DNA from: a virus
DNA length: 64,000 bases
Reading direction: 5' to 3' (one strand)
IMG/VR virus record: IMGVR_UViG_3300042882_001046
Location: 54,269-118,268 of that record
Positions 20,627 through 25,398 of the stretch are shown in pieces; within the stretch, counting starts at the first letter, position 1; each line of letters starts with the position of its first letter. Under the pieces are notes generated by a model that worked only from the letters and a program-made list of their open reading frames with translations, had not been told where the DNA came from and ran no database searches. The position numbers were made by a program, and so were the translations under genes.

Positions 20627-20700
20627 TACTCCGTACGGGGCTCGAACCCGTAATCTTCACCGTGAAAGGGTGACGACTTAACCAATTTGTCCAACGGAGC
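20627..20700 (-). tRNA. trnE: tRNA-Glu(TTC)
   Basis: TCACC-CTTTCAC-GGTGA. Confidence 0.93.
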
Positions 20701-20754
20701 AATTATTCAACAAAAATACGACCAATAAATCAAAGAACCAAAAAACATCAAAAT

Positions 20755-20787
20755 AAAAAACCCCGAACCTTTTTACGAGTTCGGGGT
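20755..20787 (-). terminator. Attenuator-type terminator upstream of tRNA array A
   Basis: ACCCCGAAC-N10-GTTCGGGGT followed by T-run; 5' arm complementary to AGTTCGG in leader ORF. Confidence 0.85.
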
Positions 20788-20820
20788 ATATAAAAAATTT
20801 AGTTTATTAATCTAAAAAAA

Positions 20821-20919
20821 TTATCCTATTTTGACATCCGAACTACATAATAGCATACGCTCATACCAACAAATCGATTGTTGTGTACTAAAGACCATAT
20901 GTTTAAATGTAGTTTTCAT
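20821..20919 (-). CDS. Leader peptide A (32 aa) MKTTFKHMVFSTQQSICWYERMLLCSSDVKIG
   Basis: Read by hand; sits between a consensus promoter and a terminator; codon content mirrors downstream tRNAs. Confidence 0.85.
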   Translation of the reverse strand: MKTTFKHMVFSTQQSICWYERMLLCSSDVKIG

Positions 20920-20937
20920 TGTTTCTTATATATAGTA

Positions 20938-20968
20938 CAAAGATACAAAAAAATCTTTGGGTGTCAAA
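20938..20968 (-). promoter_or_regulatory. Bacteroidota primary-sigma promoter for leader A
   Basis: TTTG(20968-20965)-N19-TATCTTTG(20945-20938). Confidence 0.8.
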
Positions 20969-20993
20969 TATTTTTTTTAACTATTTATAAAAG

Positions 20994-21413
20994 ATGAAAA
21001 CATTGAGACAAATCATTAAGGAAGAATTATTACTTGAAAAAAGAATCACTCAAGTTAATTCGTCTTTAGAAGTAGTATTCCTATTTGACGTAAACAGGAC
21101 CACTCACGCCTTTGATAGAGACACAAGAGATGATATTGAAGGGTATAATGTAAGACCGATTGTTAACGCTGAAATTAGAGAGATTATCAGTACAGTAAAA
21201 AAAGATATTGCCGAAAAAATAGTTTCAAGGGAAATTAACCCTGAAGTAGATTTTGTTGTAAAGTCCTTAAAATGGGAATTAGCCATGGCAATAACTCCTG
21301 TTCATATTGGAGGAACTTATTGGCAATTAATTATCAAAACAGTATTCAGAGAATCCAAATACAACCCTTTTAGAGTGGGTGAAAACCAATTGGTGATTTA
21401 CTCAGACATTTAA
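20994..21413 (+). CDS. Hypothetical, probable virion protein
   Basis: TATTTATA 4 nt before ATG; N-terminal IIKEELLLE. Confidence 0.65.
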   Translation: MKTLRQIIKEELLLEKRITQVNSSLEVVFLFDVNRTTHAFDRDTRDDIEGYNVRPIVNAEIREIISTVKKDIAEKIVSREINPEVDFVVKSLKWELAMAITPVHIGGTYWQLIIKTVFRESKYNPFRVGENQLVIYSDI

Positions 21414-21504
21414 AAAAAAAAAGGGTAACACTAGTATCTGAATCGTTCCCGTGTTACCCAGTTTGTAATTGAGCTTGTGTATCTAAATCGTGCTCCTCAA
21501 TCAC
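21412..21504 (-). ncRNA. Two-hairpin small RNA with duplicated loop motif ACGATTYAGATAC
   Basis: TATCTTTG (21509-21516); stems GTGATTGAG/CTCAATTAC and GGGTAACAC/GTGTTACCC; 11-nt U tail. Confidence 0.75.
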
Positions 21505-21543
21505 AATACAAAGATACAAAAATATTTCGTACCACAAAAAATA

Positions 21544-22254
21544 TTATCCCTGAATATTAAAATTAATCACACATCTGTGAGTTTTTCCGTAAAAAGGTTT
21601 AACCGAATGAACAATATCGTAAGGCCAAATTATTAACATCCCTTTCTTTGGTCTAATAAAGTAAGACATTCCCCTAACGTGAAATGTAAATACCCCACTA
21701 TATGGATGGTCATCAACTGGGTCTCCGTCAGATAGATAATAACCACCAGAAAAGTTTAAAGTTGTTTCTTCATTTGGTTGCCATCTACAATGATTATGAG
21801 CGTTATGTCCACGACCTTCAGTTGGATTATAATATTGCATCCAACTCTCAGTAATCATTGGTTTTCTGTTGTGTTCAAATCCAAGTTTGTCCAGCATCTC
21901 CATATAACCCAATTCTACCCTTTTTTTAATTTTCTTAACACATTCCTCATCTATATTAAGAAAATCGTTTGGCGGGGTCCAAAATCGACTACCAATGGGG
22001 TTATGTTCCGTTGGTTCCACCCACATGTCTTGCCTATTGTAGTTTACTTGATATGTAGATTGTCTTTGTTCGTCGTATTGTTCTGGTAACTCTTGACCCA
22101 TCAATTTTTGTTGGTCGGTTAGAGCATTAAAACCAAAATTATAAACTTCGTCTTGAAGTTCGTCATCTGTGAATACTTTCATAAACACAGGAATAGGTGC
22201 AAGATGAAAAAGATTCTCCTGACTTGTTTTAACTAATGGATTTTTTACGTACAT
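21544..22254 (-). CDS. Putative 2OG-Fe(II) oxygenase
   Basis: HNAHNH, SGGYYL, IWPYDIVHSVKP, RCVINFN. Confidence 0.7.
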   Translation of the reverse strand: MYVKNPLVKTSQENLFHLAPIPVFMKVFTDDELQDEVYNFGFNALTDQQKLMGQELPEQYDEQRQSTYQVNYNRQDMWVEPTEHNPIGSRFWTPPNDFLNIDEECVKKIKKRVELGYMEMLDKLGFEHNRKPMITESWMQYYNPTEGRGHNAHNHCRWQPNEETTLNFSGGYYLSDGDPVDDHPYSGVFTFHVRGMSYFIRPKKGMLIIWPYDIVHSVKPFYGKTHRCVINFNIQG

Positions 22255-22267
22255 AATTTAAATCTTG

Positions 22268-22348
22268 TACCCCAAGAGAGACTCGAACTCTCACGACCGA
22301 AGTCATTGGTTCCTAAGACCAACGCGGCTACCGTTACGCCATCGGGGT
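22268..22348 (-). tRNA. trnL: tRNA-Leu(TAG)
   Basis: TTGGT-CTTAGGA-ACCAA; variable arm. Confidence 0.92.
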
Positions 22349-22351
22349 GTG

Positions 22352-22443
22352 TCATTATCGCTTCAGCCACATCGGGAAAGGCGCCTCTCCCGCGTTGTTT
22401 AAGTGTGTAACTTGCGCCGTATCTCACTGAGGTACGATAATGA
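22352..22443 (-). ncRNA. Structured inter-tRNA element
   Basis: 9-bp closing stem TCATTATCG/CGATAATGA; inner hairpin CGGGAGAG-GCGC-CTTTCCCG. Confidence 0.5.
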
Positions 22444-22446
22444 TTG

Positions 22447-22520
22447 TGATTCGGAATGGATTCGAACCATTGACCTACTGCTTAGAAGGCAGTTGCTCTA
22501 TCCAACTGAGCTACCGAACC
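22447..22520 (-). tRNA. trnR: tRNA-Arg(TCT)
   Basis: ACTGC-CTTCTAA-GCAGT. Confidence 0.93.
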
Positions 22521-22524
22521 ATTG

Positions 22525-22610
22525 TACCGAGGGAGGGACTCGAACCCTCACGGCCGTTTACTGACCAAGGGATTTTAAGTCCCTCGTGGCTACCATTACA
22601 CCACCTCGGC
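22525..22610 (-). tRNA. trnL: tRNA-Leu(TAA)
   Basis: AGGGA-CTTAAAA-TCCCT; own promoter TATATTTG at 22620-22627. Confidence 0.93.
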
Positions 22611-24042: not shown

Positions 24043-24057
24043 AAATAAAAGTTTTAG

Positions 24058-24130
24058 TGGAGAATGAGGGAATCGAACCCACGACAACTTGAATGCAAAT
24101 CAAGCGCTCTACCAACTGAGCTAATTCCCC
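24058..24130 (-). tRNA. trnA: tRNA-Ala(TGC)
   Basis: G3:U70; CTTGA-TTTGCAT-TCAAG. Confidence 0.93.
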
Positions 24131-24136
24131 TGTTTG

Positions 24137-24209
24137 AGCCTCCTGTCGGAATCGAACCAACGACCTACTGATTACAAATCAGTTGCTCTACCTGCTGAGC
24201 TAAGGAGGC
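24137..24209 (-). tRNA. trnT: tRNA-Thr(TGT)
   Basis: ACTGA-TTTGTAA-TCAGT. Confidence 0.93.
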
Positions 24210-24259
24210 ATTTGTGGGTGTATGCTCATCACATACTCATGGGTTCCCACAACCCGTTG

Positions 24260-24332
24260 AGCGGAAGACCAGGCTCGAACTGGCCACCCCCGACTTGGAA
24301 GGACGGTGCTCTACCAAATGAGCTACTTCCGC
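24260..24332 (-). tRNA. trnG: tRNA-Gly(TCC)
   Basis: CCGTC-CTTCCAA-GTCGG (one T-T mismatch); U73. Confidence 0.9.
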
Positions 24333-24337
24333 AATTT

Positions 24338-24413
24338 TGGCGGTCCCGACGGGATTCGAACCCGTATCTCGCACCGTGACAGGGTGGAATTGTAACCATT
24401 CAACCACGGGACC
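24338..24413 (-). tRNA. trnD: tRNA-Asp(GTC)
   Basis: CTGTCAC loop; the only tRNA here with encoded CCA. Confidence 0.92.
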
Positions 24414-24441
24414 GTGTGTGGGGAGTTTCACCCCAAACTTT

Positions 24442-24933
24442 TTAATTTGTTAAGATGTGTTGATGTTCTCCGATTACTCGTTTTAAACTACTAACATATC
24501 TCTTATCAGACGCATATACCCTTCCGAGTAGTGCAAGATACTGATTTTTTGTCAAATCGTCTTTACCTTTTAACATATAATCTTGCCATAAAAAGTAATC
24601 ATATACGCTAAGGTTCCAATCTGTATATTTTGAGTATCCGCTCTGAGTTTTACCAACTGAAGACGTTTCTCTTTTTGTTGGAACTCTCATTCCAAACAGA
24701 TTGTTTGCCGTTTTGAACAATTTTGATGTAAATGCTCCTGACTCTAACACAGCTTGTGCAAACACAATATCAGGAAATTTTATACCAAACTTAATTATCT
24801 GCTCGTACAATTCTTCTTTTGTCAACCTATCATCTTGTGTCTGATAAGTTGTTTGTACTTGCTTCTCTTGTGCTTTTGTTGTCATTGTTCCTAACAATAA
24901 CAACACAGTCAATAAGAATGTTTTTAACTTCAT
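24442..24933 (-). CDS. Glucosaminidase-domain (GH73-like) peptidoglycan hydrolase with signal peptide
   Basis: AQAVLESG, NNLFGM, YASDKRY motifs. Confidence 0.8.
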   Translation of the reverse strand: MKLKTFLLTVLLLLGTMTTKAQEKQVQTTYQTQDDRLTKEELYEQIIKFGIKFPDIVFAQAVLESGAFTSKLFKTANNLFGMRVPTKRETSSVGKTQSGYSKYTDWNLSVYDYFLWQDYMLKGKDDLTKNQYLALLGRVYASDKRYVSSLKRVIGEHQHILTN

Positions 24934-25013
24934 TTCTTTCTTTTTGTCTGTTTATGCTTCAGGATTACTCCATCCACGATACCACAACATTGGAAATTTT
25001 CCACCCACCTCAG

Positions 25014-25085
25014 CTGCTCCACCTGGGCTCGAACCAGGATAAAAGGATTAACAGTCCTCCGTAATAACCATTATACGATAGAGCA
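25014..25085 (-). tRNA. trnN: tRNA-Asn(GTT)
   Basis: GAGGA-CTGTTAA-TCCTT. Confidence 0.92.
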
Positions 25086-25122
25086 AAATTATAATCAAAT
25101 TTTCCAACAAAGGAAACTTTTG

Positions 25123-25196
25123 TCGGGATGGCTGGATTCGAACCAACGGCCTCCACGTCCCAAACGTGGCGCGATACCTGACTACGCTACATCCCG
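25123..25196 (-). tRNA. trnP: tRNA-Pro(TGG)
   Basis: CCACG-TTTGGGA-CGTGG. Confidence 0.93.
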
Positions 25197-25201
25197 TACA
25201 T

Positions 25202-25232
25202 AAAAAAACCCTGAAGTATTAGTTCAGGGTTT
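25202..25232 (-). terminator. Attenuator-type terminator 5 nt upstream of trnP
   Basis: AAACCCTGAA-N7-TTCAGGGTTT-TTTT; 5' arm and loop complementary to AGTTCAG in leader ORF. Confidence 0.88.
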
Positions 25233-25254
25233 AGATAATTGGCTATAATATTGT

Positions 25255-25353
25255 TTACCAACCACTCGCTTCTGAACTTACGCAAATAGTGCCCGCATCC
25301 CCATTAGGAGTTGTCGGTGTGTCTAAATTCGTATTTGTGTTCATAGTTTTCAT
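25255..25353 (-). CDS. Leader peptide B (32 aa) MKTMNTNTNLDTPTTPNGDAGTICVSSEASGW
   Basis: Read by hand; TATTTATT at 25367-25374; codon content mirrors downstream tRNAs. Confidence 0.85.
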   Translation of the reverse strand: MKTMNTNTNLDTPTTPNGDAGTICVSSEASGW

Positions 25354-25398
25354 AGTGCAATATTACAATAAATATATTTAAAAACCAAAAAATAAATA

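Follow-up and report, generated by a model that had tools for sequence, protein, structure and literature searches.

We analyzed a 64,000-nucleotide window of viral DNA, the right-hand 64 kb of a 118-kb virus contig with 33% GC (IMG/VR record IMGVR_UViG_3300042882_001046), in which two arrays of transfer RNA (tRNA) genes are each preceded by a short open reading frame (ORF), the leader, and by an intrinsic terminator. Each leader consists largely of codons for the amino acids carried by the tRNAs encoded behind it, and a segment near its end is complementary to the 5' arm of the terminator. The two cassettes share one anatomy, their ORFs are kept open in related genomes, the match between peptide and array recurs there, and the bases of the alternative helices covary. 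The cassettes are thus real, conserved cis-elements. Judged from sequence, they are probably ribosome-mediated attenuators that couple transcription of the tRNA arrays to the speed at which the cognate codons are decoded.

Anatomy of the cassettes and composition of the leader peptides

The window contains 23 tRNA genes, all on the minus strand between positions 18031 and 26572, which cover all 20 amino acids and fall into four blocks. The first block on this strand is tRNA-Met alone. Array A (24057..25196, minus strand) encodes tRNA-Pro and tRNA-Asn, followed by a glucosaminidase gene and then by tRNA-Asp, Gly, Thr and Ala. Array C (22267..22627, minus strand, including a promoter box TATATTTG that ends at 22620) encodes tRNA-Leu(UAA), Arg(UCU) and Leu(UAG). 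Array B (18031..20700, minus strand) is the longest, with tRNA-Glu, Val, Phe, Lys, Cys, Trp, Tyr, Gln, Arg(ACG), His, Ser(UGA), Ile and Ser(GCU) and small genes interspersed.

An earlier sequence-only reading of this DNA had singled out two minus-strand ORFs of 32 codons that begin ATG AAA ACT and have Ser-Ser at codons 26–27. Both are present, leader A at 25353..25255 and leader B at 20919..20821, each including a stop codon. The same reading had described in each ORF a 7-mer perfectly complementary to a terminator arm downstream and equally far from the stop. The complementarity is exact in both cases: AGTTCAG in leader A (25278..25272, codons 26–27 plus one nucleotide) is the complement of CTGAACT (25227..25221), and AGTTCGG in leader B (20844..20838) is that of CCGAACT (20784..20778). 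In both ORFs the 7-mer occupies the same place, beginning at nucleotide 76 and leaving 14 nucleotides (nt) to the stop, and its target falls within the 5' arm and the first loop bases of the terminator. In shuffled ORFs such a 7-mer occurs with a probability of 0.013 for leader A and 0.005 for leader B. We refer to this region as segment 2, the putative antiterminator partner of the terminator arm; in leader A it spans 25272..25278, and in leader B it is the 3' part of a longer stretch, ATGTAGTTCGG, at 20838..20848. A second sequence near the start of each ORF, segment 1, can pair with segment 2: TGAAC at 25339..25343 in leader A (codons 4–5), and AACTACAT at 20907..20914 in leader B (codons 2–5), which pairs with ATGTAGTT of segment 2.

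Terminators followed by tRNA arrays lie behind both leaders, as the earlier reading had stated. That of leader A (25202..25232, minus strand) has its 5' arm, CCCTGAA, at 25229..25223, its 3' arm at 25215..25209 and its T-tract at 25208..25202; that of leader B (20754..20787, minus strand) has the 5' arm CCCCGAACT at 20786..20778, again followed by a T-tract. A terminator scan found both independently, at 25232..25206 and 20787..20760. The stems have energies of −9 to −16 kcal/mol with 6–10 T after each, and terminators of this CCCYRAAC type occur in the 118-kb genome only at the heads of three tRNA arrays. tRNA-Pro begins at 25196, 6 nt past the T-tract of leader A, which leaves no space for a promoter, so tRNA-Pro and tRNA-Asn should depend on read-through. 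tRNA-Glu begins approximately 55 nt past the T-tract of leader B.

Promoter-like sites are found 4–18 nt upstream of the leader ORFs in the window. The consensus of the −7 promoter element in Bacteroidota is TAnnTTTG. Leader A is preceded by TTTG, 20 nt and TAATATTG, which has one mismatch to this consensus (25358..25389, minus strand). The site ends 4 nt before the ATG, an arrangement kept in the relatives L002–L010, and the mRNA would therefore be leaderless or nearly so. Leader B is preceded by TTTG, 19 nt and TATCTTTG (20938..20968, minus strand), conserved in relatives, which we take to be a perfect Bacteroidota-type −33/−7 pair. A scan with the sigma-70 consensus was uninformative (35 sites versus 33 expected).

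The composition of each peptide matches the array behind it. Codons 2–22 of leader A specify 7 Thr, 4 Asn, 2 Asp, 2 Pro, 2 Gly and 1 Ala; 18 of the 21 residues belong to the six amino-acid types of array A, compared with 33% in the phage proteome (p ~1e-6). The same codons of leader B include 12 of the 12 amino-acid types of array B (p ~8e-5). The match extends to codons: Ser codons from both boxes (AGT and TCG) correspond to the two Ser tRNAs of array B, and the Arg codon CGT corresponds to its tRNA-Arg(ACG), with CGT or CGC used across leader B cores. In four-fold boxes, codons of the NNG form account for 33% in the leader cores compared with 10% in this phage. The cores are enriched in codons rare in this phage, and the Val codon GTC is conserved in them although its usage in the genome is 5%. 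That the two compositions are nearly mutually exclusive, as had been proposed, is borne out by a two-by-two table of cores and amino-acid sets (Fisher p = 1.3e-6). The more precise statement, that 17 of 18 residues at codons 5–22 belong to the leader's own array in each case, holds for leader A. For leader B the count is 15 of 18, the exceptions being two Met and one Thr; it becomes 17 of 18 if Met is counted, whose tRNA lies outside array B here and inside it in relatives.

In AT-rich DNA, short ORFs and 7-mers that complement one another arise often, and a single 7-mer match is expected by chance at about 1% per leader. None of the 242 other ORFs of 26–40 codons in the 118-kb genome, however, matches either leader on set coverage and residue count together. 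These joint statistics, conservation in approximately eight lineages and the compensatory changes described below exclude coincidence, to which we assign a negligible probability.

Database searches place the leaders in no known family. None of leaders A, B and C has a Pfam or PHROG family at E values up to 1. An Rfam search of positions 17000–28000, also at E up to 1, returned the tRNAs and chance matches only, none of them over the leader intervals. The two 'Phe_leader' rows in its output (E 0.19 and 0.81, far below the gathering score) are chance matches on an unrelated bidirectional terminator at 17678–17701. This hairpin and the one at 22653–22686 have T-runs on both strands, and both look bidirectional. 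Two other identities for the leader region were considered and rejected. Direct binding of tRNA in the manner of a T-box would require 20 consecutive specifiers, which is implausible, and no Rfam model for Stem I, specifier or T-box matched. Degenerate tRNA pseudogenes were rejected as tRNA models gave no match over the leaders.

Conservation in relatives and alternative RNA helices

Relatives were gathered through the 2OG-oxygenase gene that lies between arrays C and B, which yielded 129 loci (49 from IMG/VR and 80 from metagenomes; individual loci carry L numbers). Approximately 40 of them contain homologous tRNA arrays. From these we compared 32 distinct leader sequences, 12 of class A, 16 of class B and 4 of a third class, C, representing about eight lineages. 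IMG/VR was also scanned with a DNA pattern encoding the conserved stretch Gln-Gln-x-Ile-Cys-Trp of leader B; among the matches listed, most were due to chance and one was a new lineage, L196. In L196 (8340–8645 and 10800–11030), a diverged leader B follows directly after tRNA-Leu, with matched changes in the terminator loop, and a Pro-Asn-Gly-Thr array stands behind a bare promoter box. L121 is a 2.6-kb metagenome contig on which (at 940–2200) the end of the 2OG gene and leader B, both 100% identical to those of the window, are followed by a different array with Glu, Thr, Leu, His, Met and Arg tRNAs. Either the relative is a mosaic or the assembly is chimeric. In array A of L005 (3561–3788) and L006 (6332–6559), an HNH-endonuclease-like ORF of 75 residues lies between tRNA-Gly and tRNA-Thr.

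Class C provides a third leader in a place where the window has none. A terminator of the CCCYRAAC family stands ahead of array C at the end of the DUF6878 gene (22653..22686, minus strand), and a leader ORF is absent there in this genome. In the L002–L013 clade, the same place holds a 22-codon ORF approximately 105 nt before the Leu-Arg-Leu array. It encodes 8 Leu and 4 Arg, or 12 of 21 residues (p = 5e-7). The Arg codons are all AGA, matching tRNA-Arg(UCU), and the Leu codons are TTA, CTT and CTA. A leader rich in Leu and Arg at this position is what the attenuator reading independently predicts. Leader A shows a complementary pattern: in lineages without leader C its core contains 2–5 Leu and mostly 1–2 Arg, compared with 1 Leu and 0 Arg in the L002–L013 clade.

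The sequence of the peptides drifts among relatives, and their make-up is kept. Counted as distinct amino acids per core column, states from the leader's own set outnumber those from the other set by 40:7 in class A and 46:8 in class B (cross-class p = 4e-13). This restriction vanishes in the last ~10 codons. The boundary lies where a stalled ribosome would start to cover the 7-mer, as expected from the ribosome footprint. Wherever a relative has retained the segment-2 motif and its contig includes the array, leader B contains all of the 8 to 13 amino-acid types of its array. In the cores of leader A, 77–95% of residues have a tRNA in the arrays behind, with the exception of L018 (65%), which has lost its Gly and Arg tRNAs. 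The expectation that leader composition would vary with array content holds in part: replacements stay within the leader's own set, and gains and losses of tRNA genes are tracked imperfectly. In L040, which has no tRNA-Val, tRNA-Lys or tRNA-Arg(ACG), leader B is missing exactly these three amino acids in comparison with that of L060. We do not count this contrast as evidence of tracking, since a hypergeometric estimate gives p ~0.1 and Ile and Ser are retained.

The second expectation, that the bases of antiterminator and terminator covary, is confirmed in both classes. We number the segments as in classical attenuators, with the terminator arms as segments 3 and 4. In alignment A1, the 2:3 helix of class A is paired in 78 of 78 cells (100%), and three of its eight pairs show compensatory changes. 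Nine sequences have G:C beside the invariant TTCAG, where L060 and L123 have A:U; the two pairs that follow use bases of the terminator loop and are G:C or U:A and A:U or G:C. This covariation score was reached by none of 500 shuffles and collapses in slid controls. Sequences of the window's own group have A:T as the seventh pair and a mismatch at the eighth, and L003 and L008 are mismatched at the seventh. The helix of class B, 97% paired, has compensatory changes at two pairs, and its score was reached in 7 of 500 shuffles. The group of L018, L066 and L196 has moved the pairing into the loop, again with matched sequences (CTGTAGT/ACTACAG or CGTAGT/ACTACG). When all upstream sequence is searched against the 5' arm and loop, the best duplex is always at segment 2, located −23 to −12 nt relative to the stop in A and B and +5 in C. 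Duplex energies of cognate and non-cognate leader-terminator pairs discriminated weakly, the core GTTCAG being constant, and per-pair counts were used instead.

These results bear on the alternative that each ORF is an independent gene for a micro-protein with a role of its own, ends at an ordinary terminator and precedes a tRNA array only incidentally. The conservation of the ORFs would fit such genes, and so would the presence of a promoter-like site and a terminator for each. What is conserved, however, is the composition class, with the peptide sequence poorly so and without a Pfam or PHROG family to place it in. The terminator loop covaries with codons 25–26, for which an ordinary terminator has no need. 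In addition, tRNA-Pro abuts the T-tract, and the cassette is found at tRNA heads only. We consider micro-protein genes very unlikely.

The alignments also support the 1:2 helix, an inner hairpin and the 3:4 helix. In class A, the 1:2 helix (positions 13–24 with 81–92 of alignment A1) is 72% paired, and five pairs have changed on both sides; in the window it comprises 5 bp. In class B it is 86% paired, with a swap from U:A to A:U between the window and the L002 group. The middle pair of the inner hairpin is U.G, U:A, A:U or G:C in the lineages where the stretch aligns, and all of these changes fall on synonymous third positions that leave Thr-Pro-Asn-Gly-Asp intact. We read this variation as a sign that coding and structural constraints act together. 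In minimum-free-energy folds, the segment at codons 2–5 pairs with the 7-mer region and encloses the whole ORF, and the terminator folds separately. As modelled, the four-segment 1:2, 2:3 and 3:4 layout of the trp or his leaders is common to classes A, B and C, with sequestration by segment 1 clear in B and C and less so in A.

A long hairpin that encloses the ORF and contains covarying pairs is also what a non-coding structured RNA would look like, be it a small RNA, a tRNA-precursor processing element or an insulator element, with the reading frames incidental. Variation at third positions is only moderately higher than at the others (37 versus 28 and 25 in A; 40 versus 29 and 29 in B), as this explanation would have it. 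Against it, frame 0 is free of stops in 32 of 32 distinct leaders despite the 33% GC, frames 1 and 2 have 1–5 stops each (1–4 in A), and the ATG start is kept. The inner hairpin covaries at synonymous positions with the peptide segment kept, and a purely structural role leaves the match between composition and arrays unexplained; nor is there an Rfam family. We regard a non-coding role as extremely unlikely.

To follow how a ribosome on the leader would affect these helices, we folded the nascent RNA without the 3' arm, with a mask reaching 12 nt past the ribosomal A-site. In all lineages and for all three classes tested, the model pairs the 5' arm with segment 2 when the A-site is at codons 10–20 and leaves it unpaired when the ribosome is at the stop codon. 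In the ribosome-free fold, most B and C sequences, unlike those of class A, have segment 2 paired with segment 1.

The proposed switch and its limits

The layout had been read at the outset as that of ribosome-mediated attenuation, and the open ORFs, the in-set replacements, the 2:3 covariation, the 1:2 segment (clearest in B and C) and the existence of leader C all support this. We infer from it that the ORFs are translated, that translation is coupled to transcription, and in which direction the switch works. The promoter would start a short transcript whose first 26–33 codons are translated, and the core codons (~2–22) would spell the amino acids of the downstream tRNA genes. If decoding is fast, the ribosome would reach and cover segment 2, the GTTCAG/GTTCGG region at codons 25–27 or just past the stop in leader C, while the polymerase makes the terminator; the 3:4 hairpin would then form and transcription stop. 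If a charged tRNA is scarce, the ribosome would stall at any of the core codons and leave segment 2 free to pair with the 5' arm, so that 2:3 pairing would take the place of the terminator and the polymerase would enter the tRNA genes. If there is no translation, 1:2 pairing would make termination the default. The outcome would be negative feedback, in which slow decoding of a codon set yields more of that tRNA set. The physiological trigger could, as a speculation, be anticodon nucleases or depletion of host tRNAs.

Several observations weigh against this reading or narrow it. The first concerns promoters. TAnnTTTG boxes are found approximately 10–20 nt before tRNA-Met, tRNA-Leu, tRNA-Glu and tRNA-Cys, and some of the conserved boxes lie between the terminator and the first tRNA: in array B of all lineages, in array C, and in array A of L014, L040 and L123. 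In the window, the second promoter box of array B, TATTTTTG, is at 20711..20718 on the minus strand, past the terminator and 10 nt ahead of tRNA-Glu. Transcription of such arrays is possible without the leader, which would leave the attenuator in control of only part of the flux; for arrays B and C it would add an inducible share to independent transcription. The second concerns composition. Ala occurs in the leader A cores of L014, L018 and L041 with no Ala tRNA nearby, and His, Ile and Phe occur in leader A of L060. The Ile and Ser retained in leader B of L040 have no tRNAs at that locus, L121 carries the leader B of the window ahead of a different array, and L196 is without leader A. The third concerns the RNA. 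The mask-free fold of class A still pairs segments 2 and 3, which blurs the branch in which absence of translation leads to termination. The antiterminator is short, 6–8 bp in A and up to 10–12 bp with a bulge in B, and closes a loop of 40–75 nt. At equilibrium the terminator always wins, and the model thus needs kinetic, co-transcriptional folding. Finally, coupling of transcription and translation is assumed for the host, which is presumed to belong to the Bacteroidota.

The promoter boxes raise the question of whether the leaders sense translation for a different output. They could serve as a timing device, as a general sensor of translation capacity or starvation that modulates read-through into self-promoted arrays, or through interference with the downstream promoter. 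The conserved boxes between terminator and first tRNA in B and C are consistent with such a role, and some lineages drive the same arrays from a plain promoter without a leader. The upstream boxes hint at temporal classes as well: leaders A and C have a common box, ATATTTAT, 5–20 nt before the ATG (window 25366–25377; L002:9450–9466; L018:6735–6758), unlike the TTTG-N19-TATCTTTG site of leader B, and the two may represent two promoter classes or temporal classes. A general sensor, however, needs neither set-specific cores, nor three leaders, nor Arg codons matched to the array, and array A of the window has the leader promoter only. We consider a different output unlikely, and attenuation of the tRNA arrays by their own codon sets is the reading we prefer.

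One further promoter-like box was noted outside the cassettes. On the minus strand, 21470–21517 contains a perfect TTG-N18-TATCTTTG box; its end, at 21509, lies just past the 2OG gene, and it points antisense into a plus-strand ORF of 139 codons at 20994–21413.

The tRNA set of the phage is near-minimal, with one U34 tRNA per four-fold box (Pro, Thr, Ala, Gly, Val, Ser and Leu) and ACG for Arg. ARAGORN also predicts a phage transfer-messenger RNA at 6242–6664 on the plus strand, whose tag would have 21 residues and end in VVAA; combined with the tRNAs for all 20 amino acids, it would make an unusually complete decoding kit. Auxiliary genes in the window include a Lon-like ATP-dependent protease (PHROG 4871, E 9e-244; 1590–3605, plus strand) and two tandem Nol-like carbamoyltransferases (27993–31254, plus strand). 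A megablast search of the 10-kb region against GenBank phages gave tRNA-sized matches only, and a protein search returned distant uncultured phages only and no close cultured relative.

Implications and comparison with known attenuators

If the proposed mechanism is correct, the tRNA supply of the phage is under direct feedback from decoding speed. This would bear on the question of why phages carry tRNAs, for which codon-usage compensation, replacement of degraded host tRNAs and escape from anticodon nucleases are the explanations concerned. The leaders would also be compact natural sensors, reading up to 13 tRNA species in a frame of 20 codons, which could be useful for synthetic biology, and the cassette would provide a simple annotation signature for regulated tRNA operons.

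To our knowledge, the genes reported to be under leader-peptide attenuation are those of amino-acid biosynthesis and a few synthetases, and do not include tRNA genes or phage arrays. In full-text literature searches, no publication describing control of tRNA genes by leader peptides was found. A possible parallel is found in phiCbK, a phage of Caulobacter vibrioides (JX100813): at 48.1, 49.5 and 51.3 kb of its genome, a block of tRNA genes is immediately preceded by an annotated terminator and a short ORF. In two of these ORFs the amino acids of the block are visibly overrepresented; one of 32 codons, in which 9 of 15 core residues are Phe, Val, Ile or Gln, precedes Phe-Val-Ile-Ile-Val-Gln-Gln. 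The match is less clean than in the cassettes described here, as Arg, Ala and Thr also occur in the ORFs although the blocks have no tRNAs for them. The phiCbK cassettes are unrelated in sequence to those of the window, and the host phylum and promoter type differ. The phiCbK genome paper mentions neither leaders nor attenuation. We lean slightly towards a more general picture in which phage tRNA arrays would commonly be governed by 'roster' attenuators, a class not described before, with 1–2 codons per downstream tRNA. The phage would in this way gauge, for each codon family, whether decoding in the cell is sufficient for its needs, and only the deficient set would be topped up. The cassettes would then be modular, A, B and C being paralogue-like with rewritten cores, and analogues would have arisen in unrelated phages of Bacteroidota and Alphaproteobacteria.

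Among known systems, the aminoacyl-tRNA synthetase genes controlled by tRNA charging, through the pheST attenuator with its pheM leader and through T-box riboswitches, are similar in that genes of the translation apparatus are placed under the supply of charged tRNA by a terminator/antiterminator switch. pheM, in contrast, senses one amino acid and controls a synthetase, and the T-box binds uncharged tRNA directly and without a ribosome, through elements that were not detected here. The single-amino-acid leaders trpL, hisL, leuL and pheL follow the same 1:2, 2:3 and 3:4 logic and have rare codons in the sensing part; leuL uses the rare CUA codons. The geometry of leader C is that of trpL, with segment 2 just past the stop. 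In leaders A and B, segment 2 instead lies inside the ORF, 14–21 nt before the stop, and a roster of codons takes the place of a run.

The closest likeness is to the multivalent leaders of enterobacteria, ilvGMEDA (32 codons; Ile, Val and Leu), ilvBN and thr (Thr and Ile). As in these, a short translated leader would contain codons for several amino acids, stalling at any of them would lead to read-through, and a terminator is combined with a mutually exclusive antiterminator and a putative upstream sequestering segment. The cassettes differ from them in belonging to a phage of a presumed Bacteroidota host and in having no sequence similarity (no Rfam match). The leaders sample 6–13 amino acids, mostly once or twice each, rather than runs of two or three kinds, and tRNA genes rather than biosynthetic enzymes are regulated. 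Most likely, then, the mechanism itself is a known one, and what sets the cassettes apart is the genes they regulate and the roster-like leader.

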